From: a virus
DNA length: 40,776 bases
Virus genome (UHGV): UHGV-0210060
Reading direction: 5' to 3' (one strand)
Shown here: piece by piece, positions 1 through 39,702 of the stretch
How the letters are laid out: every line of letters begins with the position of its first letter
How positions within the stretch are numbered: the stretch's first letter is position 1
Program-made: the position numbers and the translations under genes
Notes under the pieces: generated by a model
The model's database searches: none
What the model was told of the DNA's origin: nothing
Seen by the model: only the letters and a program-made list of their open reading frames with translations

Positions 1-168
1 CTGTTTGACCATCAGGACGCCGTTAACTATTACGTGACGCTCACCTTTGCTGTCTCGGTTGTACTTGAGCACTGTTCCTCTTGCGCAGGAAAGCATCCTC
101 GCCACTTCGGTCTGATTGCCTCGTGTCTGGATAAGAAGCTCTGGTATCGTTTGAATTGTGGCGTTCAT
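1..168 (-). CDS. ninH: NinH-like protein, 3' end runs off window start (56 codons in window)
   Basis: ATG at 168..166 overlaps rusA stop (ATGA). Translation MNATIQTIPELLIQTRGNQTEVARMLSCARGTVLKYNRDSKGERHVIVNGVLMVKQ resembles lambda NinH (..GNQTEVARRLKCSRGTVRKY..IVNDVLMV). Frame continues at window end (GKRGRR then TGA at 40758..40756). Confidence 0.7.
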   Translation of the reverse strand, partial: MNATIQTIPELLIQTRGNQTEVARMLSCARGTVLKYNRDSKGERHVIVNGVLMVKQ

Positions 169-527
169 ACGTTCTCCAGTTCGGTGATTTTTATTCCAAG
201 CCGTCCGCCTGGTACTTTCACACCACGAATTACGCGAATATCATCGAATTGCTCGTCGTCTTCCGCAAATCCGGCGTGGATAAGGGAGTCGAGTAAACCT
301 TTCAGGATGTTATCGAGGTCGCGGCGGCGGGAGTCTGGAACGTCTGCGATGACTTTGATGCGGAGTCGTGATTTGGTGAAAATGTCTAACTTGAGTTGGC
401 GGATGATTTGCTGAACGTCTTTTCGGTATTTCTGACCTTTATCGCTGATGTAATATTGGCTTCCCCGTCTTCGCCAGTAGGTATTCACCGACGGCGGGTA
501 TGGAAGCACAAACCGATATTCATTCAT
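165..527 (-). CDS. rusA: RusA Holliday-junction resolvase
   Basis: 120 aa; LPYPPSVNTYWRRRG ... DSRRRDLDNILKGLLDSL motif pattern typical of RusA; nin-region position. Confidence 0.9.
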   Translation of the reverse strand: MNEYRFVLPYPPSVNTYWRRRGSQYYISDKGQKYRKDVQQIIRQLKLDIFTKSRLRIKVIADVPDSRRRDLDNILKGLLDSLIHAGFAEDDEQFDDIRVIRGVKVPGGRLGIKITELENV

Positions 528-814
528 GACTTAACCTTCCCCTCCTTCAGCAATACCGCCTGCGTCCTGATCACGCCTTCGAGGTGGTAAAGTCTGGCGT
601 CTTTGTTGTCGAGAATCCGGGTGCGTCGGTCGATCTCCGCGTGGCAGTCACTACAAGCCCATGCGCCGATCAGGTCGTCAGGCTTCATTCCCGTTCCGCA
701 AATTCCAGCCATCCGGTAATGTGCCAGAACTGTAGTTTCAGGATTGCCATTGCATACGCCGTAAATACGTACCTGGCATTCTCTGCCGCGCGCTTCTTTG
801 CGTAGGTTAGCCAT
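524..814 (-). CDS. ybcO: YbcO-like DUF1364 protein (putative nuclease)
   Basis: 96 aa, Cys/His-rich (RGRECQVRIYGVCNGNPETTVLAHYR ... CSDCHAEIDRR); lies immediately upstream of rusA as in DLP12-type nin regions. Confidence 0.7.
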   Translation of the reverse strand: MANLRKEARGRECQVRIYGVCNGNPETTVLAHYRMAGICGTGMKPDDLIGAWACSDCHAEIDRRTRILDNKDARLYHLEGVIRTQAVLLKEGKVKS

Positions 815-1019: not shown

Positions 1020-1194
1020 CGTCTTCTTCCTCGTACATTGAGCTATTCGGATCGCTCATCAGTTCTGCGCAGCAATCGGAGCACACGTGAACTTCCAGCA
1101 CATGCAGCTTCTGACCGCAGTTAGCGCACGTTAAAGCTCGCTCGACGCTTTCTTTCTGGTATTGAAGGGATTGGGATGGGATAAGCATTAACAA
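1012..1194 (-). CDS. ninF: NinF
   Basis: 60 aa; [45 protein letters not shown] nearly matches lambda NinF. Confidence 0.85.
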   Translation of the reverse strand: MLMLIPSQSLQYQKESVERALTCANCGQKLHVLEVHVCSDCCAELMSDPNSSMYEEEDDE

Positions 1195-2155
1195 CCTCCA
1201 TACAAACTTTCACGAATGCCGTTGCTACTTCTGCATTGATTGCGTTTCCATATCCAATAATTCGCTGATCTTGATTGCGCTTTGCCATTCTTCCCAGTGT
1301 GGACTTGCCTCGTCCCAAGCTTTTGGCAATGCCATTAACCATCGGGAATGAGCCGGGTCTAACTGGACGATATTTTTCATCTCTACAGTAAAGCCAGTCT
1401 GCATCTCTCCAGAAGCCGTTAACCGGTAATGGGTACATAGCTTCACCGTCCCGGGAAGTTTCAAGCAGATTCTTGGGGTTCCGCTCTTGTCTTTTCCGCT
1501 GTAGCAATGCGTTGAACCTGTTGCATCGTTCGCTAAAGGAGTTTGCCATCCCGCTAGTCTCACGCATCCAGATAGGTTCTGAATTCCCCTGCGCGTTTCT
1601 GGCTGAAAGTTGATATTTGTCGTTGGAGTAGGCCACCCAATACAATCGCTGCCTGATGTGCGGAGAACCGAAGCCCGCAGCGCAAATATCGGTACCTGCA
1701 GAGGTGTAGTTCGCACCTTCCAAGTCAGTTTGTACAAGGTCGAGCCAAGCGAGGCCGTCTGCGCTTGCAACCTGTTCGCCAATAACGATGCCAGGATTGC
1801 ATTTTTCAATAAGCCAGAAGAATGCCGGCCATAAGTGCCGCTCGTCATCAACCCCTTTTCCTTTGCCTGCCGAGCTGAAAGGTTGGCATGGGCAACTTCC
1901 TGTCCAGATGCTCTTGTTGTCTGGCCATCCTGCTTTTCTAAGTGCATAGCTCCAAACTCCGATTCCTGCAAAAAAGTGGTGCTGGGTAAATCCTCGCAAA
2001 TCACCTGGTGTGACATCTTCAATACTCCTTTCATCTACATAACCGGGGGCAATTTCTCCAGCGTCAATTAAGTTACGCAGCCATTGCGCTGCATACGGAT
2101 CTATTTCGTTGTAATACGCAGTCATCGTCATTTCCTCGCACGATGTCTTAGCCAC
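1121..2155 (-). CDS. DNA (cytosine-5) methyltransferase, orphan phage type (frame A); overlaps a second long ORF in another frame
   Basis: 344 aa with motifs in canonical order: FFAGIGV (I), GSCPCQPFS (PCQ, IV), IGEQV (ENV-like, VI), [10 protein letters not shown] (QxRxR, VIII), [17 protein letters not shown] (X-like). Start may be an internal Met because of overlap with ninE. Confidence 0.7.
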
Positions 2156-2304
2156 CGGATATCCAACAGGTGAGCCGTGTAATTGAAGGTTTTTACGTCA
2201 GATTCTTTCGGGATTGGCTTGCGTTTATTTCTGGAGCGTTTCGTTGGAAGGTATTTGCAGTTTTCACAGATTATGTCGGTGATACTTCGTCGCTGTCGTC
2301 TCAT
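2128..2304 (-). CDS. ninE: NinE
   Basis: From internal Met: [56 protein letters not shown] matches lambda NinE; ATG overlaps ninB stop (ATGA). Confidence 0.85.
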
Positions 2305-2711
2305 TCGTACCTCCTGTCGGTAAATCTGACGCCCTGACCAATAGCCCATGCTGTCGTGTACTCAATCAGACTTGCCATACGCTTCACACTCATCTGCGCG
2401 CTACTTTCGCGAATGTTGACGTATTCGCCTTCAAGGCCGGGCAAAACATCAGCTTCCTGCTTTGTTGCCACTGCATGACCGCTAATCAACAAAACCTTCC
2501 ATTGTTCTGGTTTTAACCACTTATCGCACCATTGAACCTGACGTGCGATATCCGCCAGCATCGCGTGAAATTTTGCGTTCTGGTCAAGGTTGCGCTTGTA
2601 GTCAGTAATGCGGATGGTGACTGGCTTGTCTTTATCGAGTGGTGTTGCGAGGATGGCGTTGATTGCGGCTTGCTGTTGTTGCTTAGTTCGGAGGAATATT
2701 GTTTGCTTCAT
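2301..2711 (-). CDS. ninB: NinB (Orf-family recombination mediator)
   Basis: 136 aa; pattern ..RNLDQN.K..A.L.D..RQV.W...WL..E.WK resembles lambda NinB. Confidence 0.8.
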
Positions 2712-4117: not shown

Positions 4118-5998
4118 TTAATACTCCGTCACGTTTTCCTGTCGCCACGCCTCGTCATATTCCGATTTCGGCATATTGGCGATGTAGCTATATGGCGATC
4201 CTGATTCAAGTTGCAGGAACTGGTGCGATTGCTCGTCAAGGAACAACGGGACACCACCTTCCCAACCTTCGCCGTTTCGTTGCTTTTCAAGCATCAAAAC
4301 AGATGCCGGAGATGCCAGTAGCTGTTCGTCCTTCTCTGACATCTTTTCACCACTCTGAACTCTCTGTAACGCTCTCTCGCGAGCCTTGTTACGCCAGATG
4401 ATGAAAAGGTTGTCTGTCAGGTCTGTTATCGCTCCAGAGCCTTTTACGTCCATTTTCCCGGTTGGTTTTTCTTCGCTGTCACCTTTTCGCGAGTGAGTAA
4501 CGAGAATGACGTGGGAGTTTGTTTTGTTTTTGAAATCGCAAATCGAGTCAACAAACGCCTTCTGCCCGTTATAGTCATCGTCGCCTATGCCACATTTCAT
4601 CAGGCTGTCGATGATGAATAACTGGATGCCGTATCGGCGGCGAGCGTAGTCGAATATTTCGATCAGCCTGTCGGCTTTCGCCGTTCCGGTCAGGCCAAAC
4701 ACCCAAAGTCTTTCGTCATAAAATTTAAATGCAGAGTCAATTTCCAGCACTGGCGGCATCTTGCAGCACGTCGCCTGACGGGTAAGGCGCTTAAGGAGAA
4801 TACCAGGCTTCAGCTCAAGTGACGCGATGCACGTCTTCACACCCTGACGCATTGCCTCAAGTGCCATATGCCCGACAACCTCCGTTTTTCCGTGACCGTT
4901 CACACCATTGACCAGCGTCAACTCTGCCTCACGGAACTGGAATTTATCTGCCAGAGATTCCCACGGTGGATTAAACAGATACTGCTGCTTGCCGTAGAAA
5001 GCGTTGATAGTGTCCTGGTAAAACTCTCGCGCACTGTAGAGTTCTTCAGGATCGAAGTAGGATGCCGTGCCGATGTACTGCCAGATTTCATCCTCGGTAA
5101 CACCGTTCATCAGGCATTCGTTGATGTCTTTGTACGGCAGAGTAACAAGACGGCAACGATGTTCACCGAGTCGGCTTGCGATTTCCCTTGCGGCTTCACG
5201 ACCAACATCATCAACGTCCATCGAGATGAATATTTCCTCAAACCTGTCGAGGTTGTGGTACTCAAACTCAATCCACTGTTGCTTAGCGCCTTTCCCTCCA
5301 CCAAACGGCACGGATAACGCCGAGATGCCGTATTGCGCATAGCTCATACAATCAATTTCGCCTTCGCAAAGCACAACCGCCCTCACGCCAGCGTCCAGAG
5401 CCTGCCATCCGAACAGACAAGGTTCGCAATCACCTTCTGCCATAATGACTTTCTTCCCGTCCGGGCGCTCAGTGCTGATTCGCTTGACCTGCAACAACTC
5501 ACCATCGCGTTTGTACGGAAGCACCAGTGCATCAAGTTCTCGTTCTCCCTTCCACACCTTGCCGCTGACAACCTCGTAGCGCTTTACTACTTCTGGCGAT
5601 ATGCCACGCGATTGCAGGTACTCAAGATGGGATTCTGTTCTGGTAACGTAGCGGGCGATTTTCTTGCGATCAGGTCTGGAGAATTTCTTCTCACGTTTGG
5701 CATCGAAATGGTGATCGTCATCCTTGATACCGAGAAAGGCTTTCGCTTCCTGCATAGCCTGATGCAGGTTAATTCCACGACATGCCATCCACAAATCAAG
5801 CATGTCACCGCCGTCTCCCTCAGCGAAATCAGCCCATTTTTTCTTGCCGCTAAGGTTGACCTTAAGGCTGTTTCCCTTGTCACCGTTGACGTTACCGGCA
5901 ACCCACTCATGCCCCTCTTTCTTGCCGTTTGGCAACAGGTGCGGAGCCACCCTGTCAACCTGCGCCCAAAGCAGATCGCTAAGTTCATTTGGCCTCAT
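4118..5998 (-). CDS. bifunctional DNA primase/helicase (Toprim domain + RecA/DnaB-like ATPase)
   Basis: 626 aa; Toprim-like acidic cluster (CEGEIDCMSY ... ISMDVDDVGREAA); Walker A LVNGVNGHGKTE; Walker B LFIIDSLMK; sits where lambda has P. Confidence 0.8.
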   Translation of the reverse strand: MRPNELSDLLWAQVDRVAPHLLPNGKKEGHEWVAGNVNGDKGNSLKVNLSGKKKWADFAEGDGGDMLDLWMACRGINLHQAMQEAKAFLGIKDDDHHFDAKREKKFSRPDRKKIARYVTRTESHLEYLQSRGISPEVVKRYEVVSGKVWKGERELDALVLPYKRDGELLQVKRISTERPDGKKVIMAEGDCEPCLFGWQALDAGVRAVVLCEGEIDCMSYAQYGISALSVPFGGGKGAKQQWIEFEYHNLDRFEEIFISMDVDDVGREAAREIASRLGEHRCRLVTLPYKDINECLMNGVTEDEIWQYIGTASYFDPEELYSAREFYQDTINAFYGKQQYLFNPPWESLADKFQFREAELTLVNGVNGHGKTEVVGHMALEAMRQGVKTCIASLELKPGILLKRLTRQATCCKMPPVLEIDSAFKFYDERLWVFGLTGTAKADRLIEIFDYARRRYGIQLFIIDSLMKCGIGDDDYNGQKAFVDSICDFKNKTNSHVILVTHSRKGDSEEKPTGKMDVKGSGAITDLTDNLFIIWRNKARERALQRVQSGEKMSEKDEQLLASPASVLMLEKQRNGEGWEGGVPLFLDEQSHQFLQLESGSPYSYIANMPKSEYDEAWRQENVTEY

Positions 5999-6105: not shown

Positions 6106-6966
6106 TCACCTGTCGAAAAACACGTAGCCAGTTTTCGATACGGTGATTGCGGATGATGGTTTGGATTGTGGTTGAATGGTTTCTGGCTTCTCGTCGTTCC
6201 AGCGTTGACCGTTCAGGTAGCTCGATGGTAACAACCTGTCGAATCCGAACTGCTTACCATTCCTGCATGCGATGTCTTCTGCCAGCATCGTGGCAAACTC
6301 GCTTGCCGTACCCCTGGTAGTTTTACGCCATTCCCTGAACTGTGTTCTGAATGCCGAAGCTGCGTTTTTCTTCCCGGCCTTCCGCATGCCTGCACACCAG
6401 AATATTTCCTCGAATGCCTTGTCGGTTTCTTCGTGACGGTCAGGTGATTTTTCACACTCCGTCCGAACACTTTCGGACATAGTGTTTTTATTATTTCTTT
6501 TTTCTTTTGTAATAGTTTCTTTTGTGTGTCCCTGTTTTGGTGACAGCGCTGTCACCGTTTTGGTGACACTTTTTGTCACCAATGCAGTGACATTATCACC
6601 AGAGTAGTGACACCCTTCGATTTGCCATTCCTCGATGTTCTTGTTAGGCCCGATTTGCTGGCCTTCGCGAAGGATAACCTTCATCGCGATAAGCTCATTC
6701 TTGGCCTTGTTTACCTTCTGTCTTGGCAGCCTGGTAATTTGAGCTAACTGACTATCAGAGATGCGATCCATCTTTTTACCGTAGCCGTATGTTTTACGGC
6801 ATATGGCGTGGGCAACCTTGCTCTGATTTTTCGTTAAATCTGCGCCGATAAGCTCTTCATACAGGGCATTTGCAAGACGGGTATAACCATCTTCAACTTC
6901 TGCCACACGACGCTCCACAGGCCGTTGTGAAGGCCTTAAATGTGTTACGGTTGCAAGATTACTCAT
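6106..6966 (-). CDS. replication initiator, lambda O-like N-terminal domain with divergent C-terminus
   Basis: N-terminus aligns by eye to lambda O ([26 protein letters not shown]...[20 protein letters not shown] ... GPNKNI.EW ... [10 protein letters not shown]); iterons lie inside the gene. Confidence 0.85.
6480..6620. repeat. origin of replication: AT-rich tract plus iteron-like TGACA/TGTCA repeats inside the O-like gene
   Basis: 6481..6530 is A/T-rich; 6538..6616 has repeated GGTGACA / TGTCACC units (ttttggtgacagcgctgtcaccgttttggtgacactttttgtcacc...), the arrangement seen at lambda ori. Confidence 0.65.
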
Positions 6967-7922: not shown

Positions 7923-8627
7923 ATGGAAAACAAAGATATTCGCAAGTCGAATCTGGCGTTTTTGCTAGATGAGCATAAAAAAATCGCGGGTAACACTAAT
8001 GCAAGCTTTGCCGATAAGCTTGGGGTTAGCCCTTCTCAACTCACGCAAGTCTCCGGTGAAAAAAGCACGCGAAACATAGGGGATAAACTAGCAAGAAAAT
8101 TTGAAGCCGCACTTGGGTTACCTAATGGGTGGCTTGATTTGGTACATGATGTAACACCAATTGCATCATGCTCAGATTCTTTAACTTTTGTCGGTCAGGT
8201 AAGAAAAGGGTTAGTGCGCGTGGTTGGTGAGGCAATTCTTGGTGTTGATGGTGCCATCGAGATGACCGAAGAGCGCGATGGGTGGCTCAAAATTTATAGC
8301 GATGATCCAGATGCCTTTGGTCTTCGTGTGAAAGGAGACAGCATGTGGCCCAGAATAAAATCAGGAGAATATGTGCTCATTGAGCCTAACACCAAAGTAT
8401 TCCCGGGTGATGAGGTGTTTGTCAGAACCATCGAAGGACACAACATGATCAAGATTCTTGGCTATGACAGAGATGGAGAATACCAGTTTACAAGCATCAA
8501 CCAGGACCACAGACCAATAACGTTGCCTTATCATCAAGTAGCAAAGGTGGAGTATGTGGCTGGTATTCTGAAGCAGTCACGCCATCTGGATGACATCGAG
8601 GCAAGGGAGTGGCTGAAAAGTTCGTGA
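7923..8627 (+). CDS. cI: CI-type repressor (HTH + S24 LexA-like autopeptidase domain)
   Basis: 234 aa; C-terminal GDSMWPRIKSGEYVLIEP ... GDEVFVRT ... MIKIL fits the S24 Ser/Lys fold; divergent from cro. Confidence 0.85.
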   Translation: MENKDIRKSNLAFLLDEHKKIAGNTNASFADKLGVSPSQLTQVSGEKSTRNIGDKLARKFEAALGLPNGWLDLVHDVTPIASCSDSLTFVGQVRKGLVRVVGEAILGVDGAIEMTEERDGWLKIYSDDPDAFGLRVKGDSMWPRIKSGEYVLIEPNTKVFPGDEVFVRTIEGHNMIKILGYDRDGEYQFTSINQDHRPITLPYHQVAKVEYVAGILKQSRHLDDIEAREWLKSS

Positions 8628-9667: not shown

Positions 9668-9717
9668 GGGATGCAATGCCGAAGCAACCGCCTCAGGAGT
9701 AGCTTCGGGATTGCATC
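9668..9717 (+). other. long hairpin in the N leader (16-bp stem with one mismatch, 16-nt loop)
   Basis: GGGATGCAATGCCGAAGC ...16 nt... GCTTCGGGATTGCATC, ending 25 nt before the N start codon. Confidence 0.6.
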
Positions 9718-9742
9718 ACCAGAGTTTATTCGGGAGGAATCT

Positions 9743-10015
9743 ATGTCCAGAAAAACAGAATTTAAAGGCACCGCAGCTTCTCGCCGTAGAGCTCGTCGTG
9801 CAAATCTGCAAAGTCAGGAGGCGATCAGCTCCGACAAGCTACACAGGCCAACCCCTTCACGAGTGGTCTTGCAATGCAAGCGCAAACCAGCAATGAGAGC
9901 AGAAGTAATAACACTGACAACGTTGACCAGAAAATATGAAGGCTCAACTTGTCTTCCAAACGTAGCTATTTACGCGGCAGGCTACCGGAAATCAAAACAA
10001 CTGACGGCGAGGTAA
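9743..10015 (+). CDS. N: N-type antiterminator (arginine-rich motif)
   Basis: GGGAGG RBS; MSRKTEFKGTAASRRRARRANLQ arginine-rich N-terminus; C-terminus AIYAAGYRKSKQLTAR resembles P22 gp24 (ALYAAGHRKSKQITAR). Confidence 0.8.
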   Translation: MSRKTEFKGTAASRRRARRANLQSQEAISSDKLHRPTPSRVVLQCKRKPAMRAEVITLTTLTRKYEGSTCLPNVAIYAAGYRKSKQLTAR

Positions 10016-11085: not shown

Positions 11086-11793
11086 ATGGATTTGAACAAA
11101 TTCGATGAGCCATTCAGCCCTGAAGATATCGAATGGCGAATACAGCAAAGCGGTAAAACACGCGATGGCAAGGTGTGGGCTATGGTGCTGGCTTATGTCA
11201 CGAACCGGGCAATCATGAAGCGCCTGGACGATGTTTGCGGCAAAGCAGGATGGCGCAATGAATACCGCGATATTCCCAACAACGGCGGAGTTGAATGCGG
11301 CATATCAATCAAGATTGATTCCGAATGGGTAACCAAATGGGATGCTGCTGAAAACACGCAGGTAGAAGCCGTCAAAGGCGGTCGTTCCGGTGCAATGAAG
11401 CGCGCTGCCGTTCAGTGGGGAATCGGTCGGTATCTGTATAACCTTGAGGAAGGTTTTGCACAAACATCTCTCGATAAAAAGCAGGGATGGCACAGGGCAA
11501 AACTCAAGGATGGAACAGGATTTTACTGGCTCCCTCCATCGCTGCCGGGATGGGCAATCCCAGCATCAGATAACAAACCATCACCAGAAAATACCAACCA
11601 GAAATCTCCATCGGTTGACTGCGAACAAATCCTGAAAGACTTCAGCGATTATGCGTCAACAGAAACTGACAAGAAAAAACTCATCGAGCGTTATCAGCGT
11701 GACTGGCAATTAATGGCTGGCAACGAGGAGGCGCAGGCTAAATGCGTTCAGGTAATGAACATCAGAGTTAACGAACTAAAACAGGCGGCATAA
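11086..11793 (+). CDS. Rad52-like single-strand annealing protein (Sak type)
   Basis: Pattern DIEWR...G...GKVWAMVLAYVTNRAIMKRLDDVCGKAGWRNEY ... MKRAAVQWGIGRYLYN fits the Rad52/22 N-terminal fold signature; precedes ssb. Confidence 0.65.
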   Translation: MDLNKFDEPFSPEDIEWRIQQSGKTRDGKVWAMVLAYVTNRAIMKRLDDVCGKAGWRNEYRDIPNNGGVECGISIKIDSEWVTKWDAAENTQVEAVKGGRSGAMKRAAVQWGIGRYLYNLEEGFAQTSLDKKQGWHRAKLKDGTGFYWLPPSLPGWAIPASDNKPSPENTNQKSPSVDCEQILKDFSDYASTETDKKKLIERYQRDWQLMAGNEEAQAKCVQVMNIRVNELKQAA

Positions 11794-12309
11794 ATGGCAA
11801 GCAGAGGCGTAAATAAGGTGATCATTATTGGTCGCCTTGGGCATGATCCAGAAATCAGATATTCACCATCAGGAACGGCATTTGCAAACCTTACCGTTGC
11901 TACGTCAGAACAATGGCGTGATAAGAAAACTGGAGAGCAAAAGGAGCAGACGGAGTGGCACCGCGTGGTAATGAGCGGGAAACTGGCAGAAATTGCCAGC
12001 GAATATCTGCGAAAAGGCTCTGAGGTTTATCTTGAAGGCAAATTGCGGACAAGAAAATGGCAGGATCAAAGCGGACAGGATCGGTTCACTACCGAAGTCA
12101 TCGTGGGCGTTGGTGGAACCATGCAAATGCTTGGTGGCAAGCAAGGAGGCAATGAACAGTCTTCACCTCAGCGAAATAATGGTCAGCAACAAAGACAGCA
12201 ACCTCAGCAGCAGGGAAATCACAGCGAACCACCTATGGATTTTGACGACGATATCCCCTTTGCACCAGTAACTCTCCCCTTCCCTCGTCACGCTATTCAC
12301 GCAATTTAA
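11794..12309 (+). CDS. ssb: single-stranded DNA-binding protein with C-terminal extension
   Basis: OB-fold N-terminus ([41 protein letters not shown]...TEWHRVV), Gln/Gly-rich linker, MDFDDDIPF, then 15 extra residues [15 protein letters not shown]. Confidence 0.9.
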
Positions 12310-12317: not shown

Positions 12318-12866
12318 ATGAATCACTTGATGGTTGACCTTGAAACAATGGGCAACGGGCCATACGCGCCAGTTATTTCTATTGGGGCGGTATTCTTTGA
12401 CCCGAATACCGGAGAAACAGGAGAAGAGTTCTCGGTAAATATCTCGCTTGAATCATCAATGCGATATCGAGCGCGTCCTGACGCTTCAACGATTTTATGG
12501 TGGCTGGAACAGAGTGAAGAAGCCAGAAAATCGCTAACCAGCAACACTCAGGAGCTTTCAACGGCTCTTTCATGGTTATCTGAATTCATCATAAAGAACG
12601 CTAACCACAAATTCGTTCAGGTTTGGGGGAATGGAGCATCATTTGACTGCGTTATTCTCCGAAACAGTTATTCGCTGACAGGGCAGCCAGTTCCATGGCA
12701 GTGGTGGAATGACCGCGACGTAAGAACAATCGTCGAGCTTGGAAAGGTAATAGGATTCAACCCTAAGCGAGATATGCCATTCAAAGGAACTCGCCACAAC
12801 GCGCTTGATGATGCCATCCACCAAGCCAAATACGTTTCAGCGATCTGGAAAAAGTTAGCTAAATAA
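12318..12866 (+). CDS. DEDDh 3'-5' exonuclease (DnaQ-like)
   Basis: Exo I DLETMG, Exo II NGASFDC, Exo III HNALDDA in canonical order. Confidence 0.75.
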   Translation: MNHLMVDLETMGNGPYAPVISIGAVFFDPNTGETGEEFSVNISLESSMRYRARPDASTILWWLEQSEEARKSLTSNTQELSTALSWLSEFIIKNANHKFVQVWGNGASFDCVILRNSYSLTGQPVPWQWWNDRDVRTIVELGKVIGFNPKRDMPFKGTRHNALDDAIHQAKYVSAIWKKLAK

Positions 12867-15633: not shown

Positions 15634-15852
15634 ATGTACTTGACACTTCAGGAGTGGAACGCACGCCAGCGACGCCCAAGAAGCCTTGAAACAGTTCGTC
15701 GATGGGTACGCGAGTGCAGGATATTCCCTCCTCCGGTTAAGGATGGAAGAGAGTATCTGTTCCACGAATCAGCGGTAAAGGTTGACTTAAATCGACCAGT
15801 AACAGGTAGCCTTTTGAAGAGGATCAAAAATGGGAAGAAGGCGAAGTCATGA
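15634..15852 (+). CDS. xis: excisionase Xis (lambda type)
   Basis: MYLTLQEWNARQRRPRSLETVRRWVRECRIFPPPVKDGREYLFHESAVKVDLNRP... is essentially lambda Xis. Confidence 0.95.
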   Translation: MYLTLQEWNARQRRPRSLETVRRWVRECRIFPPPVKDGREYLFHESAVKVDLNRPVTGSLLKRIKNGKKAKS

Positions 15853-16900
15853 GCGCCGGGATTTACCCCCTAATCTTTATATAAGAAACAATGGATATTA
15901 CTGCTACAGGGACCCAAGGACGGGTAAAGAGTTTGGATTAGGCCGAGACAGGAGGATAGCAATCACTGAAGCTATACAGGCCAACATTGAGTTATTTTCA
16001 GGACACAAACACAAGCCTCTGACAGCGAGAATCAACAGTGATAATTCTGTTACGTTACATTCATGGCTTGATCGCTACGAAAAAATCCTCGCCAACAGAG
16101 GAATCAAGCAGAAGACACTCATAAATTACATGAGCAAAATTAAAGCAATAAGGAGGGGGCTGCCTGATGCTCCACTTGAAGACATCACCACAAAAGAAAT
16201 TGCAGCAATGCTCAATGGATACATAGACGAGGGCAAGGCGGCGTCAGCCAAGTTAATCAGATCAACACTGAGCGATGCATTCCGAGAGGCAATAGCTGAA
16301 GGCCATATAACAACAAACCCGGTCACTGCCACTCGCGCAGCAAAATCAGAGGTAAGGAGATCAAGACTTACGGCTGACGAATACCTGAAAATTTATCAAG
16401 CAGCAGAATCATCACCATGTTGGCTTAGACTTGCAATGGAACTGGCTGTTGTTACCGGGCAGCGTGTTGGGGATTTATGCGAAATGAAGTGGTCTGATAT
16501 CGTAGATGGCTATCTTTATGTCGAGCAAAGCAAAACCGGCGTAAAAATTGCCATCCCAACAACATTGCATGTTGATGCTCTTGGGATATCAATGAAGGAA
16601 ACACTTGATAAATGCAAAGAGATTCTTGGCGGAGAAACCATAATTGCATCTACTCGTCGTGAACCGCTTTCATCCGGCACAGTATCAAGGTATTTTATGC
16701 GCGCACGAAAAGCATCAGGTCTTTCCTTCGAAGGGGATCCGCCTACCTTTCACGAGTTGCGCAGTTTGTCTGCAAGACTCTATGAGAAGCAGATAAGCGA
16801 TAAGTTTGCTCAACATCTTCTCGGGCATAAGTCGGACACCATGGCATCACAGTATCGTGATGACAGAGGCAGGGAGTGGGACAAAATTGAAATCAAATAA
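15830..16900 (+). CDS. int: integrase Int (lambda-type tyrosine recombinase)
   Basis: 356 aa; MGRRRSHERRDLPPNLYIRNNGYYCYRDPRTGKEFGLGRD... near-identical to lambda Int along its length; overlaps xis. Confidence 0.95.
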   Translation: MGRRRSHERRDLPPNLYIRNNGYYCYRDPRTGKEFGLGRDRRIAITEAIQANIELFSGHKHKPLTARINSDNSVTLHSWLDRYEKILANRGIKQKTLINYMSKIKAIRRGLPDAPLEDITTKEIAAMLNGYIDEGKAASAKLIRSTLSDAFREAIAEGHITTNPVTATRAAKSEVRRSRLTADEYLKIYQAAESSPCWLRLAMELAVVTGQRVGDLCEMKWSDIVDGYLYVEQSKTGVKIAIPTTLHVDALGISMKETLDKCKEILGGETIIASTRREPLSSGTVSRYFMRARKASGLSFEGDPPTFHELRSLSARLYEKQISDKFAQHLLGHKSDTMASQYRDDRGREWDKIEIK

Positions 16901-17130
16901 TGATTTTATTTTGACTGATAGTGACCTGTTCGTTGCAACAAATTGATAAGCAATGCTTTTTTATAATGCCAACTTAGTATAAAAAAGCTGAATGAGAAAC
17001 AAGAAAAATCATCAATATCAATGTGTTATGATGGTTTTGGTCTAAATAATAGACTACATAATACTGCAAAACACAGCATGTGCAGTCACTATGAATCAAC
17101 TACTTAGATGGTATTAGTGACCTGTAACAG
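16900..17130. other. attP (lambda-type core at 16974..16988 with P and P' arms)
   Basis: TTAGTATAAAAAAGC is the reverse complement of the lambda core GCTTTTTTATACTAA; the int-proximal arm matches lambda, the distal arm is recognisable but diverged. Confidence 0.85.
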
Positions 17131-17477: not shown

Positions 17478-20183
17478 CTACATTGCCATTAATATAAACA
17501 TAGCCAATTCGTCATAACGAATTCCGTAGCGTCCTCCTGCTTTTTTTACAAGAATCATATCTCCTGTTTTATATTGAGAATAAATTTTCTCACCTGTATC
17601 AGGATCTGTGCTCTCTTCAGTTATCACCTCTTCATCCCATACGTCAGGCCATTCATCGTAACACCAAAAAGCATATTGCTCAGGGTTTAAACCATGCTTT
17701 CTAAGAATATCCCCTACGGTTTGAGCGCCAACGCCAAAATGATACCTGGACGACTCAATTCCTTTGTTATTAATTGAGTCATTAAATTTAAATTTATAGA
17801 TGACTGACTTTATTTCAATAGCGGCATCACGCTCTGCATTAAGAATATCATATCTTGTTTTAAGAGTTTCATCTGATGTATTGATTGACCCGGTTCCTGC
17901 ATAAATAACAGAGCATCTGTTTGATGGCTGTCCAATGGCTTTAACATTATCATCAACAGGAGCTATTTTATTAGCATCTGCCAACCACCAGTCTGTTCCA
18001 TCAGCGTGACCGATTCTTACTCTTATCCCACTTCTAATATTTAAACTTCCAGTATTACTCTGTAAATTACAATCTCCTGACGTTGGTCCAAGCAGTACAG
18101 TTTTACCAACACCACATACTACTCTGGCATTTCCTTTTTGTGATACGAGTCTTGACTCACCTCCTGACTGCTCAGGAAGAGATTTATGGTCTATAAATGC
18201 ATCGCGGGGGTTAAATACACCGTCTCCGGAATTATATCTTCCTCCTGTATAGTTGTTAAATACAGGACCCCAGTCAACGCCATTGCCTTCAGAGCACCCG
18301 ACCATTCTAAGCACTCGAGTATTCCCTGCTGCATATGGTAATGAGCTTGTTGATTGCCGGGAAGCTATCATACGTGCTCCATAACCAATAGCATTACCAC
18401 CATTTATAGTTACATATGCTTGCTGGCTTTCGAAATATGTACTGTAAAAGTTCATATTTCCACAGTCATGTAGATGAATAAGAACATCATCCCATCCCTG
18501 AATGGTTCCTGCATGTACCTGTACACCGCGAACTGGTTCCCCTGAAACCTCCATACACTCTGATGGTCGGCTGAATGGTTGAGACAGGTATTGCGATGTG
18601 GCAAGCAGATGTGTGTGGTGATACAGGCTGGTAATGTAGCAATCGAAAAATTGCGTTCCCGCCATACCAAAGTTATCTATGTCATTTCGCCGTATAGTAG
18701 AACCTACTGTTGCCTCAGAAGCGTTAGACACTCCAGTAAATACTAACTTATCACCGGATACGGATAATCCTGAATAAGTGAAATTCCTGCCTCCAGATCT
18801 TAAAACCCCGGACGTTTCGAAGGTGTGGCTTGCTGACCATGGTATTTCGATAGTGCTGGACGTTACCGCTGTAATTCGGAATACATCATGGGCGCGGATC
18901 GAAATACCCTTGAATCCTTGGAATCTACAGTGATAATAGTTTTCATCCTCGCCCTGAGCGGCCAGCGTGCCAGATACAGGAATGTTCGTTTTTAAAAGTG
19001 CCGTCTTGCGCCAGTATCCAACCACCTGCAAATTGCGGTATTCATTGCCAAAAGACGCACGTGACCAAATACCTACATCCCACTCATCGCCAAGACCGGT
19101 ATTTGCAATGTCTTTATAACCATCCAGCCCATTGAAATATGGAACAACACGAAAGTTCTCAAGGCGAACACATCCTGTCTCAGGCATCAATATTGCGGCA
19201 GAGAATGGTTTAAGCGTGGCTCTTGTAGTCCCATTAGCATCACCGTTAGTAAAATCCAATAAATCATATGATGACGCAGGTGCCGTTGTTGTATACGGGT
19301 CTTCGGAAGATGGGTTAGAAACCACACCACCACTAACATCCATATTAGAAACACAATCTACAGTATATTTTTTATTTCCTACCCCGTACATCAGGAATGT
19401 GGTCCCTGTGGTAATATCAGGAGCAAATGTTGCAGTATATCCTGAGACCCATTTGCCCACACCAAGACAAATTATCCCACCACCAGAAACAGGTGTTAAC
19501 GTATCCGTTATTACATACGCATTATCAGTACCATAAATAACCTTTCCTGTGTTAAGGGCAGCTTGCCACGCGGCCCAGTCTATTGACTGAGATAATGAGT
19601 CAACAAAAGGATATAAGGATTTTGCTTCAGAAATTGAAGAAAACCACTCAGATAATGGATGATATTTCCCATCCCCAATTGCTCCAAATTGTTTTACATT
19701 TAAGAAAAGAGCATTGTTTTCATGCTGAGTTATAGTTGCAGCCCCGGTAAATGGCTGCCTTACCCCAATTAATGCATCACCTTTTGAATCATCATTAATG
19801 TATGCTCCTGATTGAGATAACTGCTCTTTGAAGTCTGGGCCAAACTGATCTGGATCGTATTTTAATACATTTGGAAAATAAAACTGCTGAGTGCCATAAG
19901 CATCGTAAACAGCCATAGAATGGCCTTGCACGGTAACGAATTTGGCAATCTGTCCGTTATATACCGGATAACCAGCAGCGTTAATGATGATGGGTTGCGA
20001 AACAGGAGCGTGAGAACCGTCTTCGTTCTCCACATAAACCTGAATCTGGTTTTCAGGATTTACCGGGTCAGTGTCAATTTTACCGATATAAATTTTGCCA
20101 TTGGCTACGGCTTTAAAAGAACGAGCCATAGTGAAGAGTTGCGAAGGCATGCTTACCACAACATTGGCTGTAATGTCTGTCAT
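17478..20183 (-). CDS. tailspike (P22-type head-binding domain, beta-helix domain, C-terminal intramolecular chaperone)
   Basis: 901 aa; N-terminal ~110 aa match the P22 gp9 head-binding domain ([45 protein letters not shown] ... [12 protein letters not shown] ... NVLKYDPDQ); [10 protein letters not shown] glycosidase-like start; [11 protein letters not shown] near the C-terminus. Confidence 0.85.
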
Positions 20184-20361: not shown

Positions 20362-21258
20362 TCAGTAGTTATGTACTGAAGGAGGTAATTCTTTATTCTT
20401 AAGTCTCATCCATGCGGAAAGATTCGTTGGTCCGTCTGGCTCATTGATATCAACATCTCGTGTGTGATTGATTAAAACGTCTCTCGCCATTCCGATAACA
20501 TACGAGAATTCATGACCGTAGTCGTAGCATCTGCCGGAATAGTTCGATTGAATTTGTTTTAGCGCCGGATACAGTTCGCGGAATAATGCCTGTGAGCGGT
20601 TGGCATAATCCCATAACCATACAAGGCTGTTTGCTTCTTTTGCAGAAAGCTCGTTCTTCTCTTGTTTGCCGATGAACTCGCCTTCAAGCACTACCCTGTG
20701 GATGTACTCTACGGCTTGCGGTATCTGAGATGCATCAAGCTCTTCAATACTTTCCACATTGAAACGCTGATGAATCATTGCATAAGCTTCTGGGTACATT
20801 AGATGCTTTTTGCTGACTAGCATATTTACAGCATCACGAAGCGGAGTCCTGTCATCAACAGATGTTTTCTTCCGTGCATTTGCTGCCTCTCCCTTTGTCC
20901 AGTAGTCATGCAGCACAGTAAAGCATTCTTCCTGGTACTGAATCAGTTTATCGCGGATGTCAGCACGAACTTTCTCAGGGTTGATGCTGAACAGCCATCC
21001 ATTTAACTTCTTCAAAGGAAGGCACAGTAGCTTACGAAGCTTACCATCAGCGGCAACCATATTCATATGAATACAGTTGAACTTATCTAGTTGTTTCATA
21101 AGTTTTTGTTGCTGAGTACCCCAGCTCATTCCGAGGTTTTCAACGATTGGCTTCATCGCAACATATGCAACTCCGGCAGCCATGGCGGTGATAATCTGCT
21201 GACCATTGAAAGGTACGTAAGAGGTGTTCACTGCTTCTAAAATTGCTATACTATTCAT
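20362..21258 (-). CDS. ant: antirepressor Ant (P22 AR-type)
   Basis: From internal ATG 21258 (RBS GGAGAAAAA): [22 protein letters not shown]... resembles the P22 antirepressor N-terminus; immI context (arc upstream, tailspike downstream). Confidence 0.75.
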
Positions 21259-21320
21259 GTTGGTTTTTCTCCACGGATTTACCGACAACCGAAGCCCTGA
21301 CTGTTCCAGCAGTTGGGGCT

Positions 21321-21542
21321 TCAACGTTTTTGTAAGTCACTGTAGCTATAAAGCCACTGACCACTCATTTTTGATTTGATTGACTCTACTGAGTCACGGC
21401 AAGGAATGATTCCGCCTGACATCATTCTGATTTCCGTAAATTCACCACTCCTTATCGATTCAATGCCATCAATGTTAACTAAAGATTTACCTCTACCACG
21501 TGCATTCTCATAGCCAATCTCATCAACCTCAATAAACCTCAT
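21321..21542 (-). CDS. hypothetical protein (73 aa) between arc and ant
   Basis: ATG overlaps arc stop (ATGA); no motif recognised. Confidence 0.45.
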
Positions 21543-22072: not shown

Positions 22073-23059
22073 TTAGATTTCTGGTTTTATTCTTCCAAAA
22101 ACCTTTTCTATTCCTTTTTCGTATTCTTCTCTTGTCTCGCTCATCGCTGCGACACCAAGAAGCTTACCGATATGCTGACGCAAAGCCTTGACACCAATTT
22201 CAGAAAGGAACAGGTGCAACTTATCAGATTGTTTTCCGTTCTCGTCTCGGCTGGCTCGAATCTGTTCAAGGATTTTACCTTTACTCTTTGCTAGCGGAGT
22301 GTATATCTGCATGTTGGTTAGTTGCCCAAAACGAATTGGACGTCCTTTCTCTGGCCTGTTCAGGCCGTACAGTCGATACCACTCCTCATATAGCTCATCT
22401 GGAAATTCTTTTTCATACTGCCTCGCCTCTTCACGAACAAAGGCCTTGAAGGAATCAATAACCTCCTGTACTTCAGGTCGATATCCTGCAATAGCATAAC
22501 CAAGTCCTTTAAGCCCTGCTTTCATTGATGCGGTAACAAGTCTTTGGGCAAGGCTGGCAGATTTTGATCTTGAAGGCGGTAGTGCGCCAGCTCGATCGGC
22601 ATTAATCATTGCTGTGGCTATATCACCGATAAGGGCAATATCGTAACCGTGAGCCTCATCAGCGAGTGGATTTGGGGCTGAGTTTGGGACCGGACTTCTC
22701 CATTGAAAAATAAGAGGTTTTTTGAATTTTTCTAGCAGAAATGGATCAACAAAATCAGCCATATAATTCGTATTTAGAAAACGGTCTACATCCCTACCAT
22801 GCTCACCGATTCCTAGTAATTTAGCCAGACCAGTTTTACTAACTACAACCGTTTTATCATTATCATCAAGTACGTAACATTCTGCATCAATGCCGAAATC
22901 ATCAATGAAGTTACCCTTTCTGATCGCTCTTAGTGGCTTACCTTCCCATCGTTTTGCCGCTGCTTTCTTTGCTATTTCAGAACGCTGCTCTTTAGTCAGC
23001 GACTTTGCGCGAGCGATCCCGCCCTTAGCTTTCCCTTCGCCACTTTTCTTTTCAGTCAT
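22073..23059 (-). CDS. hypothetical protein (328 aa), possibly P63C-domain-like, basic N-terminus; sieA-position moron
   Basis: Start at Met26 of the listed ORF, embedded in an operator-like repeat array; N-terminus GGIARAKSLTKEQRSEIAKKAAAKRW. Domain call is from memory and weak. Confidence 0.55.
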   Translation of the reverse strand: MTEKKSGEGKAKGGIARAKSLTKEQRSEIAKKAAAKRWEGKPLRAIRKGNFIDDFGIDAECYVLDDNDKTVVVSKTGLAKLLGIGEHGRDVDRFLNTNYMADFVDPFLLEKFKKPLIFQWRSPVPNSAPNPLADEAHGYDIALIGDIATAMINADRAGALPPSRSKSASLAQRLVTASMKAGLKGLGYAIAGYRPEVQEVIDSFKAFVREEARQYEKEFPDELYEEWYRLYGLNRPEKGRPIRFGQLTNMQIYTPLAKSKGKILEQIRASRDENGKQSDKLHLFLSEIGVKALRQHIGKLLGVAAMSETREEYEKGIEKVFGRIKPEI

Positions 23060-23152
23060 AATGCAAGCACCTTTGTTGTGATGTATGCTTGCATTATATG
23101 CACTGTACACACATACAAGCAAGCATAAAACCAAAACAAAATGCTTGCATTA
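23058..23152. promoter_or_regulatory. operator-like array: four copies of ATGCTTGCAT-type motif in alternating orientation
   Basis: TAATGCAAGCA (23058..23068), ATGCTTGCATTAT (23083..23095), CAAGCAAGCAT (23117..23127), ATGCTTGCATTA (23141..23152); the first copy overlaps the start codon of the 328-aa gene; CATATAAT -10-like element on the minus strand. Confidence 0.55.
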
Positions 23153-23421: not shown

Positions 23422-25254
23422 TCACTGCTGTGTTGCCTCAGTGGCAAGCAGCGGTCTGATGGCATTTGCAGCTTTGCTTAACGCTCTTTCATAAGCTGGC
23501 GTTCCAGCTTTAGTGTTTGCCAGACGTAAGAGCGCATTCCTAGCCATAGGGCTTTCATAAACCCTCGACATAAGGCCAATCCCTGTTTCCCCAGCCAATA
23601 GCGCGCCTCCGTTTTTTAGGTTACCAATAACCCTTACCAAAGGCGCGAGTGTCATGCCAGTCTTCGTCACAACATTAGCCTCAGATGCTCTTTTGGTAGC
23701 ATCGAGAATAGATAACATCCCCTCTATCTCTTTTCCGTTCTTCCCACCAAATACAGTTTTAAACACCTGACCATTTGCTTGTTTTTGCAGCTTGCCAAGC
23801 TCGGTCATCATTTTCTGAGGGCTGTCACCTACCTTGTCAGCTATTTTGCTGATATATGCCGCCCTTAGCATGTCTTTACCTTTTTGATCGAGTTTCCCGT
23901 ACAATCGAGCTATATCTGACCCATATTGTCCATACACAATGGTATTTACAGCCTCGGGAGTTAAATCTCCTTTGTTTAGAACGTTTTTAAGGCGCGTTTG
24001 AGTTGCATGTGTTGCCATTTTTGCATAATCAGCTTTTCCCGCTCTCCATGCTGAAGCATCTTTTGGGCTAAGTCCTTTCGCTATAGATTTACTAAGGCTA
24101 TTGGTTAGCGAGTTGTAGACCCTGTCGACCATTGTTTGCGACATTGATGGCAGAACTGTACGATCGCCTTTTACGTCAATGCGGAACTGAGTTCTCAGCT
24201 TATCAAGTAACTCAAAGGCATCATCCCCATTTGTTATCTCCTGAATGGCATTCTTATAATCATTAAGCGCAGAAATGGTCTGTGTGTCAGAAACACCTTT
24301 AAGTTTCCCAAGTTCGTTTACTGCTCCGTCGATAGCTCTTATGGCGCCACTTGTATCAACTGGCTTTCCAACCATTCTTCCTGACAGGTTGTTTAGTTTT
24401 GACTTGGCTAACGATTTTTCCCTCGCAACGCCTGACTTTAGACTATCAACTACTACAGATGGATCGTAGTCGCCGTATTTTTCGGTGAAGCGATTAACAA
24501 GCTTGGTTCTAGCATCCTGCTGTGCGGCTCTCATTGGTCCAGTCCCAGCGATGACTCCTTCTGAGTAACCCTGCAGTTGATTGCCAAGTTTTGTTTTTGG
24601 AGGAACTACATCCGATGTCATAACTGGTACATCTGCCGCAGCGGCACGCTTGAGCAATTGCTGATCTGCGGGTGATATTTCGCCACGAACAGCAGTAATT
24701 CCACGCCCTATTCCCTTTGCTGCTGCGGAAAGAACCCCCTGAGCGGCAAGGTTGACTCCGGCATTTTTAGCTGCATTTTGTGCGAAATCGCCTTTCTGAT
24801 TTGCGGCCTCTGCCAGTGATCCAATAGCCATGCTTCCTGCCGTTCCAACTCCTGGAACTAAATACCCGCCAATTGTTTCTCCAGCTTGAGCGTAGGGGTC
24901 TGTCGGTCTGTCTACTGGACGATAAACATCATCCAAAACCTTGGGGCCACCAAGCCCCTGACTGATTGCATTAATCAGGCTTGCGCCGCCCTGCAATACG
25001 TCAAATGGTATGTTTACCAGACCACGACCAGCCTGCTCTGCAATTTGCCCTGCACTTTGACCACCTGTGAGCCAATCGCCAGCTTGTTGCATCAATGATG
25101 GTTCTTCACGTGCTGGTTCATTATTGGCCTGATTAACTGTTTGTTGCTGAACAGCCTGACCAGCAAAATACTCATCAATGGCGGTGCCAATATCTTCCGT
25201 GCTCGTACCATCAGGGAAGGTAAATGTCTTACCGTTTGCAGTTACTTTCATCAT
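23422..25254 (-). CDS. ejection (DNA-transfer) protein, P22 gp16-like
   Basis: 610 aa (P22 gp16 ~609 aa); last gene of the 4-10-26-14-7-20-16 order; Gly/Ala-rich. Confidence 0.7.
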
Positions 25255-26660
25255 TCCACCGTAAATTGAATGCCTGATTTTGACGTGTAGCTACCTCCTG
25301 CTGATTGCTGAGTAGGCGGCTGTTGCATTGAAGATTTCTTCCCTCCATTACCGACATTAACGTTATATTGCTGGTTGTAATTGTCGGTATATTGCTGAAT
25401 GTCGCGCATTGATTGTTGCAGTGCTTCAGGGCTTGAGAAATCAACCTGTGGCATACCTTGAAAATACATCTTTGCTTCTGCAACGGTGTTGATACCGGAT
25501 GCCCCCATGTCTCTGGCTGCTGCAATGCCCTGATTCTGCATCTTTCCTTGGATTCGCTGTGCAGCGTTGTATAGTTTCCTCTGATCACCACCAGATGCAC
25601 GGCTACGAATATCTGCACCAAGAGCAGGAGAACCTGAAGAGCCTGTAATGCCAGTCATGAAGCCAAGATCGTCAATTGATGCACCAGAAATTGCATCAAG
25701 ATCTTTCTTCATTGCGTAATTCTGCGCGCTTGCTGCCGATGTAGCCGGAGCGGCAATAGAGCCAGCAGGAACGCGAACCATATTCCCCTCGTTGTCGATA
25801 CCTTCGTAGAACGCATTAGCCCCAGCGCCATGAAGCTTCCCGCCGACAGTTACAGTTCTGCCATCTGATAACTGAACTGTGCGCTCATCATTCCCAGCAG
25901 TTCCTCTTGTTGACGATCGCTGCATTGCCAAATCCTGACCGCGTCGTGCAGTAGAAGCAGATAAATCCTGTCCGCGCATCGTGATGTTCTGACCACGCGC
26001 TGTTAGTGCTTCTCCAGCCTGATTGCTGCGGATTGTCTCTGCAAGTTTTCCGCGGTCAATCTCACGACCAACGATTCTGTCTTGTGCCTGAAAATATTGT
26101 TCTGGACCAAGTGCAGCCATTCCAAGGTGATCAACAAACTCTGTGAAACCTTGTGGATTTTGCTGATACATTTTCGCCACATCAAGAGGGTCTACTCCGG
26201 CACGAGTAAGCTCAGATGAGTTGTTCTGCAACCATGACATCATGGCTTCTGGAGATGAAGCTGCGAGTCTGGCACTTGCTGCCAGTGTACCGACAGTGGA
26301 ACGCTGGTCTTCATCGACAAATTTCATGCCGTTTCTTACAGCGTCAAACTGCTCAGGATACTGTGATGCCAGTTTTCGCATTGCATCGCGGTCACCAGAT
26401 GTATATGCATCAGCATAAGCCTGCTGAAACTCTTGCTGTCGCTTCTGCTGATCCATCTGCTTATACATATCCATGACAGATGAAATGCCTTGCAAAGCCT
26501 GCAAGCCAACGTTATTACGTCCTGAACGCTCCATCTCGTTATTCTGTCGAATGTATGCAAGCGTGGCGTCTGCATCACTTGCTCTTGGAGCGTTGGAGTT
26601 CATGCCGCCTAACCCGGCAAGAAGCGCGCCTGAATTACCAGCCTGTTGCCATGTAGCCAA
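25251..26660 (-). CDS. ejection protein, P22 gp20-like
   Basis: 469 aa; position and size match P22 gp20. Confidence 0.65.
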
Positions 26661-30733: not shown

Positions 30734-31987
30734 TTACTGCCCGGCAATAACGATGCCCGTATATTCAGGAACAAGTACAGAGCAACCGTACAGAGTGGTG
30801 AAACGAGCAGTGGTTACACCTTTGATGTGGTCGAAGGCGTAAGACATGATCAGCGTAGCGCCCTGCTCGGTGGTTGCTGTCATTACCTGTGGACCCTGAC
30901 CAGTCGGGAACGCCAGTTTGCCGTACATCAGCTCAACAGAACCATCAGCCCAGAACAGGTTAGCCGGTGCGGCATTTTTATTGAGAATGGTGATTGCTGC
31001 ACCATTTGCCGCGTTAGCATCAACGTTTGCATATGGACGGCTGGCGACATCTGCGTTGTCAGGCGGCAGAATTTTCGGGGAGATAGTCACTGTCGTTCCG
31101 CTTACTGCCAGAACGCGGAATACCTGCGGCTGCCCGGTGGTGTCTTTGGTGATCTGGTGTACAGAATTCACACCGGCAATGGTGAACGCATCACCAACCT
31201 GCAAGCCAGATGCAGATACCGTAATAGTCCCCTGTCGGTTATCAACTGGCATACCATTTGAATCTTTCGCTTCAACCTTGTGTTCAGGTTGGCCTGATAC
31301 TGTCAAGGATTCAGCGCTTCCTTTCGGTAATCGACCAGAAATATCGGTCTTGTAGCTATCAAAGGAAGCAACCGGAGGGATCTGCGCTTTTTCGTATGCT
31401 GTCAGGGTTGCGCCCTGAGCGTAGGCACGGTGACCAAGCTCGCCAGCAAGGTCTTTGTAGTTGAAGGGGTTCCAGAAAGAGCGACGGTTGATACCCTGCG
31501 GTACACCAATCGCCGTCATGGTGGCATCAATACCTGCCGCACAGTTCCACAAATCACGGCCCTGTGAACCTGTGGTTGAGTCAGCCATCGTGATCACGTT
31601 AGTAGCACGCTGCGTGACCATGGAAATCAGGTCAGAGTCAATCTGTGCAGCAAGGCGCATACCTGCGGCTCGACCAGCTTCAGTTTTATGTTCCGGGTCA
31701 CGCATTTCACGCGCATCCAGAGTGTACAGAATGTTTTTCGGCTCCTTGAACACAGAAGGAACAAGGCGCTGAACCAGTGCTGTAGGCGTTTTGCCGCTGA
31801 GATCGAGGCCTTCTTCAATGTTCATGTGGTAATGCTGCGGACGATACAGAACATCACCTGCTCGCTGCATTGCGGTATCACCGGGACGGAATTTTTTAGC
31901 GTTACGGGAAACTACGCAGGCGGCCTCAAAGCCTTCAACGTAGTTTTCGAACATGATTTCAAGGTCTTTTGCTAATTGGTTAGCCAT
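30734..31987 (-). CDS. major capsid (coat) protein, P22/Sf6 type
   Basis: 417 aa between scaffold and gp4-like genes; NLFWADGSVELM segment parallels P22 coat NVFWADDAIRIV. Confidence 0.8.
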   Translation of the reverse strand: MANQLAKDLEIMFENYVEGFEAACVVSRNAKKFRPGDTAMQRAGDVLYRPQHYHMNIEEGLDLSGKTPTALVQRLVPSVFKEPKNILYTLDAREMRDPEHKTEAGRAAGMRLAAQIDSDLISMVTQRATNVITMADSTTGSQGRDLWNCAAGIDATMTAIGVPQGINRRSFWNPFNYKDLAGELGHRAYAQGATLTAYEKAQIPPVASFDSYKTDISGRLPKGSAESLTVSGQPEHKVEAKDSNGMPVDNRQGTITVSASGLQVGDAFTIAGVNSVHQITKDTTGQPQVFRVLAVSGTTVTISPKILPPDNADVASRPYANVDANAANGAAITILNKNAAPANLFWADGSVELMYGKLAFPTGQGPQVMTATTEQGATLIMSYAFDHIKGVTTARFTTLYGCSVLVPEYTGIVIAGQ

Positions 31988-36605: not shown

Positions 36606-37042
36606 TTTCCGAATAGAGTGCTCATCGGTGATGTTTCAATCTGGATTGCGCCGCCGTCTTTGCCTGTTAGCTCGTGATCAACCTTGTCGCGCCATTTATC
36701 CTTCTGTCGATTCTTAAGCCAGAAGATGGCAGCGGTTGTATCAGGCGGGTAATACTTCTCAAGCGGAGTTTCGACAATTCTGTTTTCAATAACACGAATA
36801 TCGATGTCTGGAGCCACGAAGCCCATAGCGCGTTGATAAAGACGATCACTAACTTCTGCATCAGCGACGGCCTTACCCTTTTTTATGGACTCCGAAAACT
36901 TAGGATAATCAAGCTTCCACTTGTTAATAGTTGACTCACTGACTTCAAAGAAATCAGCAAGTTCTGCATCGGTGTAGCCCAGCAAGCACAGTTTGCGTGC
37001 CTGTTCGGCATACGCCTCTTGATACTTTGTTGGGCGCGCCAT
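36602..37042 (-). CDS. terminase small subunit (Sf6 type)
   Basis: 146 aa; C-terminus LTGKDGGAIQIETSPMSTLFGK matches the Sf6 small-terminase C-terminus as recalled; overlaps terL start. Confidence 0.75.
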   Translation of the reverse strand: MARPTKYQEAYAEQARKLCLLGYTDAELADFFEVSESTINKWKLDYPKFSESIKKGKAVADAEVSDRLYQRAMGFVAPDIDIRVIENRIVETPLEKYYPPDTTAAIFWLKNRQKDKWRDKVDHELTGKDGGAIQIETSPMSTLFGK

Positions 37043-38111: not shown

Positions 38112-38255
38112 GGCGTCTTTACCTTTTAGAAAGTGAGCCTGTCTCACAGAAAAGCCGCCCGAGAGAGGTCGCCACCTATAACGGCATTTCTCAGGCTCGC
38201 TTACTGAAAGGCTCTCGTTTATATGCGCGTGAGATACGCTGTGAAATTCAGATAT

Positions 38256-39395: not shown

Positions 39396-39702
39396 CTTCT
39401 ACTCCGGCTTTTTTAGCAGCGAAGCGTTTGATAAGCGAACCAATCGAGTCAGTACCGATGTAGCCGATGAACACGCTCGTTATATAAGCGAGATTGCTAC
39501 TTAGTCCGGCGAAGTCGAGAAGGTCACGAATGAACCAGGCGATAATGGCGCACATCGTTGCGTCGATTACTGTTTTTGTAAACGCACCGCCATTATATCT
39601 GCCGCGAAGGTACGCCATTGCAAACGCAAGGATTGCCCCGATGCCTTGTTCCTTTGCCGCGAGAATGGCGGCTAACAGGTCATGTTTTTCTGGCATCTTC
39701 AT
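39379..39702 (-). CDS. S: holin S (dual-start)
   Basis: 107 aa beginning [35 protein letters not shown]..., near-identical to lambda S. Confidence 0.95.

Follow-up and report, generated by a model that had tools for sequence, protein, structure and literature searches.

An open reading frame at one end of UHGV virus genome UHGV-0210060 runs off the record: on the minus strand it starts with an ATG at 168..166 and stays free of stops down to position 1. The question raised by this locus is whether the two ends of the window (the entire stretch of DNA analyzed, 40,776 bp, given as one strand) adjoin each other and, if so, what kind of molecule the record represents. A preliminary description of the sequence had read the frame as the larger part of a NinH-like gene whose remainder lies at the opposite end, and had concluded that the record is a closed circular phage genome and not a chromosome segment. 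We found that the two ends are contiguous, that the genome is complete, that its attP site is in the excised configuration and that the split gene codes for a bona fide NinH protein. Very probably, the window holds precisely one genome of a temperate, mosaic podophage of E. coli that is P22-like (of the Sf6/HK620/CUS-3 type) and carries the lambda int-xis-attP segment, the circular map having been opened at an arbitrary point within ninH.

ninH across the ends of the record

The 5′ part of ninH (1..168, minus strand) spans 168 nt, which is exactly 56 codons, and the 3′ part (40756..40776, minus strand) supplies codons 57-62 and the stop. By direct reading, the window's final 18 nt (minus-strand 40776..40759) translate to GKRGRR and are followed by TGA at 40758..40756; the join thus falls between Q56 and G57 and leaves the codon intact. 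The joined product, MNATIQTIPELLIQTRGNQTEVARMLSCARGTVLKYNRDSKGERHVIVNGVLMVKQGKRGRR, is 62 amino acids long. All coordinates given for this gene in the preliminary description, including the tail, the stop codon and its overlap with the Q start, were exact to the base, and joining end to start and translating, as had been proposed there, kept the frame and gave a genuine NinH of the predicted size of about 62 residues with a full-length Pfam match.

Both borders of the gene are formed by ATGA overlaps. The ninH stop overlaps the ATG of Q (40759..40757), and the ninH ATG overlaps the TGA of RusA (167..165). Such stop/start overlaps are usually taken as a sign of translational coupling. Joining end to start restores the normal end of a lambdoid early-right operon, rusA-ninH-Q, with its genes linked by these overlaps.

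Several comparisons bear on whether the joined sequence exists in other organisms. At the protein level, it matched Pfam Phage_NinH (PF06322) over the full length of the model (positions 1-60 of 60) with 85.7 bits and an E value of 2e-24, well above the curated cut-off of 29.8 bits. Among public proteins, an entry identical over all 62 residues is named 'protein ninH [Escherichia coli] / MULTISPECIES [Enterobacteriaceae]'; its cluster has 521 members, and the sequence was recorded on at least 1000 contigs. BLASTP alignment with the annotated 62-aa NinH of HK140 gave 100% identity over the 61 residues aligned.

At the nucleotide level, a 319-nt query consisting of the last 122 and the first 197 bases of the window aligned in a single ungapped piece (319 to 319) with HK140, mEpX2, mEp043, ECP1 and Dewey at 99.1% identity, and likewise in one ungapped piece with HK620 at 98.4%. 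At least 80% of this query was covered in 37 phage records and 577 E. coli genomes. When the query was extended to 3000 nt, two E. coli chromosomes matched it as one piece (3000 to 3000 bases, 97.7%), and an exact 53-mer centered on the join occurred in 89 IMG/VR contigs. A search of the window for a terminal overlap (a prefix identical to a suffix) and for Ns detected neither, so the join neither duplicates nor loses bases. The absence of a terminal overlap also takes away the feature by which circular contigs are normally recognized; here, contiguity of the ends was seen in independent relatives, with neither gap nor duplication. Judged from these matches, an in-frame join of this kind lies overwhelmingly beyond chance.

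The split of ninH is therefore an artefact of where the record begins, and the phage, whose genome is complete, is of a known kind. The product of ninH is an already known protein, which holds nothing novel and poses no open biological question. The NinH proteins of HK140, HK620, HK97 (gp68) and the mEp phages have the same length of 62 residues, and the gene in the window differs only by being split at the origin of the record. For annotation, this means handling the window as a circle: ninH should be entered as one 62-aa gene and not as a truncated ORF plus an orphan tail of six codons, and features near either end, such as the Q start and the nin region, need to be read across the join.

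By homology, NinH of this phage is probably a small dimeric Fis-like protein that binds and bends DNA, is non-essential and has an uncertain role in vivo. Dimeric DNA binding and bending are biochemically known for lambda NinH only, a homodimeric helix-turn-helix protein of the Fis type that is toxic on overproduction and in which mutagenesis showed residues N18, R30, T32, K35 and H45 to matter (PMC7166090). The window protein aligned with lambda NinH (68 aa) at 54% identity, gap-free, and has kept N18, R30, T32 and K35, which lambda NinH needs to bind DNA, as well as H45. The Fis-like helix-turn-helix is thus present together with the residues that contact DNA in lambda (N18, R30, T32, R34 and K35), except that position 34 is a leucine. 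Besides R34, lambda NinH has H55 and R56 where the window protein has K55 and Q56; it is also six residues longer and ends in GWSERDALLRKN, whereas the protein described here ends in the basic tail GKRGRR, the only part of NinH that lies beyond the join. A PDB sequence search with NinH gave the helix-turn-helix regions of Fis as best matches, at weak scores (E about 0.2); these are consistent with the literature and may not be taken as independent proof.

After joining, ninH occupies the distal end of the nin region, directly upstream of Q, in the order rusA-ninH-Q. Q (40136..40759, minus strand) is a late-gene antiterminator of 207 residues (Pfam Antiterm PF03589, E 1.3e-57), 206 of which are identical to lambda Q. 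The Holliday-junction resolvase gene rusA (165..527, minus strand) was recognized by a Pfam RusA match (E 1.1e-16) and by the RusA annotation in related phages, and the neighborhood further includes YbcO (524..814) and NinB (2301..2711). Direct rusA-ninH-Q adjacency is also found in HK620, HK140 and the mEp phages, and according to its annotation HK140 has the same 4-nt overlaps on both sides of ninH. In contrast, the order in lambda is ninG-ninH-ninI-Q, in which ninG (rap) precedes ninH, and ninI, coding for a Ser/Thr phosphatase, lies between ninH and Q. The preliminary description had called the arrangement lambda-type, which is true of the lambdoid nin region in general and does not extend to lambda itself, where ninI separates the two genes.

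Other features of this region were also noted. A C5 cytosine DNA methyltransferase gene lies within the nin region (1121..2155, minus strand); its start is ambiguous, either a GTG at 2155 or an ATG at 2034 (span about 1121/1225..2155). No restriction partner was seen among the ORFs examined, and the enzyme is probably an orphan methylase of the anti-restriction type. On the 3′ side of Q, a lambda PR′-like promoter was detected on the minus strand, with TTGACT at about 40093 followed by TAAATT, and a terminator-like GC hairpin with a T run is located downstream of it, at about 40010..40040. The region as a whole (about 40000..40100, minus strand) resembles the lambda PR′/qut/6S arrangement annotated in HK140.

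attP and the integration module

Alignment with lambda attP located an intact lambda-type site (P′-O-P) at 16858..17129. Its 15-bp core, TTAGTATAAAAAAGC (16974..16988), is identical to that of lambda in 15 of 15 positions, and so is the P′ arm (94/94); the distal P arm, which carries Int arm sites, matches at 97 of 100 positions and the central P arm at 43 of 64. The integrase encoded next to it (15830..16900, plus strand) shares 351 of 356 residues with lambda Int (99%), and xis, just upstream of int (15634..15852), codes for a protein identical to lambda Xis in 70 of 72 residues (97%). The earlier statement that attP is intact is thus borne out by the P′ arm, the core, the distal P arm and Int. 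On the other side of attP, the late operon ends with the tailspike gene (17478..20183, minus strand), assigned by a match to phrog_1171 (tail spike protein) with an E value of 1.2e-255. This gene and int converge on attP, an arrangement typical of an excised phage; the site is not split into attL and attR, and no host gene was found among the ORFs scanned.

A related prophage in E. coli UPEC_U013 provides the complementary view of an integrated genome. It matched the window at 98.9% from position 16970 onward, and similarity was lost exactly at the core; to the left of window position 16970, UPEC_U013 has host DNA of the lambda attB neighborhood (…CGCTCAAGTTAGTATAAAAAAGC…), next to ybhB and the bio operon. 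In this prophage, the tailspike gene adjoins host DNA. Because the prophage changes to host DNA at the core, the window is in the excised POP′ configuration; together with the intact attP, the break of the related prophage into host attB DNA identifies the window as an excised phage map and not as a prophage or chromosome segment. The stretch from int through attP to the tailspike gene was found over at least 80% of its length in no E. coli genome searched. The earlier claim that the record is not a chromosome segment accordingly stands, with an intact attP, no host gene found and an end join that is matched in relatives.

The integration module is lambda's own int/xis/attP, presumably unlike the modules of Sf6 or P22, and integration would occur at lambda attB between gal and bio. 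Int, xis and attP are shared with the lambda recombination module and the prophage relative sits at attB; the difference lies in the central P arm. Here (16989..17052), identity to lambda drops to 67% (43/64) despite the near-lambda Int and Xis. In lambda, this segment presumably holds the H2, F and X2 sites. Matches to the IHF consensus are kept at 16948 (minus strand), 17016 (plus) and 17094 (plus). The variant arm is also present in the UPEC_U013 prophage and, as judged by a 55-mer taken from it, in three IMG/VR contigs.

In a few E. coli chromosomes, including those of the engineered laboratory strains C3026 and C3029, int and attP were contiguous across the core (query 1-780 or 1-879), which differs from normal prophages. 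These are likely attP-based integration constructs or cryptic remnants.

Packaging and the form of the genome

The large terminase subunit TerL (35190..36605, minus strand) matched Sf6 gp2 (PDB 4IDH) over residues 1-456 with 1046.7 bits, placing it in the P22/Sf6 headful clade. It is nearly identical to the enzyme of Sf6, a headful packager, and headful packaging is predicted on this basis; the identity of about 96% between the late region and Lederbergvirus-like phages is in keeping with it. The small subunit TerS (36602..37042, minus strand) was assigned by a phrog_309 match and is of mosaic origin: only its C-terminal 37 residues are shared with Sf6 gp1, and its DNA-recognition part is unrelated to that protein. 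The pac site can therefore not be placed by homology, and the mosaic structure of TerS implies a putatively different specificity of pac recognition on the same packaging motor. Packaging does not start at the boundary of the window, since some 3.7 kb separate the window end from the TerS gene.

P22-like phages begin headful packaging at a pac site inside the small terminase gene, and their genomes assemble as circles because the linear DNA in the virions has redundant ends and is circularly permuted (PMC8022706). Virion DNA of the phage described here is probably of the same form, linear, terminally redundant and circularly permuted, and packaged by the headful mechanism, by analogy with its relatives (PMC8022706; PMC10345575); a literature search on headful packaging in the relative Kapi1 returned nothing. 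The map would close since the phage packages by a headful mechanism from concatemers, and any assembler would turn virion DNA of this form into a circle. Once injected, such DNA would circularize by recombination between the redundant ends; the phage codes for an Erf-like annealing protein (11086..11793).

These considerations divide the earlier proposal of a closed circular genome into two parts. It is right for the map and also for the form taken inside the cell once the ends have recombined, and it probably does not apply to packaged DNA, which is probably linear. The circle is a map, and sequence has no power to tell the physical state of the DNA that was sequenced, which could have come from virions, from an excised circle or from a replication intermediate. 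A more specific possibility is that the source was a physically circular, extrachromosomal prophage, either excised or plasmid-like, in which the variant P arm alters the control of excision and integration, with NinH, as a mimic of Fis, conceivably involved. In that case, the copy would have been recovered as a circular contig of its own from a bacterial or metagenome assembly and not from virion DNA. We regard this as unlikely.

Other origins of the record were weighed against an arbitrarily opened circular map. Presence of the junction in E. coli chromosomes is common (577 genomes match the 319-nt query over 80% or more of its length), which would also fit an integrated prophage cut from a bacterial chromosome, its in-frame join being a coincidence. 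However, attL and attR would form the ends of such a prophage, whereas the window has an intact POP′ attP in its interior, flanked by int and the tailspike gene, and the UPEC_U013 prophage has host DNA at the point where the window has attP. Coincidence is also out of the question when the ends form an exact 53-mer of 89 viral contigs and an exact known protein of 62 residues. The attP/attB evidence and the exact junction matches led us to reject this origin, the probability of which is negligible. A unit-length slice of a longer molecule is harder to distinguish, as one repeat unit of a tandem array and a circle look alike by sequence: in a tandem double lysogen, or in a packaging or replication concatemer, attP would be regenerated between head-to-tail copies, and the UPEC_U013 relative indicates that phages of this type do integrate at lambda attB. 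Yet the slice would have to match the genome length to the base, with nothing repeated and nothing missing, a match that is expected from a trimmed circular contig and from a chromosome slice only by design, and a tandem lysogen is further opposed by the lack of host DNA at either window end. We consider such a slice very unlikely.

The window ends could also be real physical ends, either cos or fixed termini, located inside ninH. Nothing was found in favor of this idea, which is a formal possibility that arises only from the record being linear. It is contradicted by the headful, Sf6-type TerL, by the location of pac within the small terminase gene of P22-like phages (PMC8022706), which here occupies 36602..37042, and by the absence of a terminal repeat or overlap. 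All relatives have this conserved coding sequence in one piece, and fixed ends within it would be unprecedented for the group. True physical ends were thus rejected on the type of terminase and the expected pac location, and their probability is extremely small. An arbitrarily opened unit-length map accordingly remains our preferred reading, and in later analyses the record can be used as a complete excised genome of a P22-like temperate phage with lambda-type integration.

Gene content and relatives

The modules of a temperate podophage of the P22 type were all found in the window, each in a single copy. Genes for replication include a primase/helicase (4118..5998) and an O-like initiator (6106..6966); those for regulation include cI (7923..8627), N (9671..10015), Ant (20362..21324) and Rha (37587..38147). 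Recombination functions are represented by Erf (11086..11793) and SSB (11794..12309), and lysis functions by an endolysin (38919..39395) and a holin (39379..39702). The P22-type virion set is present as well, including the portal (32990..35188), the scaffold, the coat (30734..31987), gp4/gp10/gp26, the ejection proteins (23422..26660) and the tailspike. Among the ORFs scanned, no host gene was found, each ORF matching either a phage-type family or nothing, and no tRNA genes were found in the window.

The order of the virion assembly genes is the same as in P22-like podophages of E. coli and Shigella (Sf6, HK620, CUS-3, phiv205-1, Kapi1 and E212; Lederbergvirus and relatives), which also share the tailspike-attP-int arrangement. 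The late region is about 95-96% identical at the nucleotide level to phiv205-1, Kapi1, CUS-3 and E212. In contrast, the early region differs from these phages and represents another mosaic: the best single phage record covered at most 37% of bases 1-25000, compared with 83% of bases 25001-40776. An identical record was not found in the phage collection or in IMG/VR. The phage is thus a new mosaic combination made from familiar parts.

Accessory genes were also observed. In a 353-aa ORF (22073..23134, minus strand), residues 230-317 matched the Pfam P63C domain; the ORF also matched phrog_2384 and nothing in PADLOC. It lies between an Arc/Mnt-Ant (immI-like) block and the genes for ejection proteins, a typical position of an accessory 'moron'. 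In a PADLOC scan of ten accessory ORFs, the only matches were generic methyltransferase matches and one weak match to a DEDDh exonuclease. A DEDDh 3′-5′ exonuclease gene was also identified at 12318..12866 (plus strand) by a Pfam Rv2179c-like match (E 2.6e-73); it is part of the early-left operon, where it adjoins Erf and SSB.
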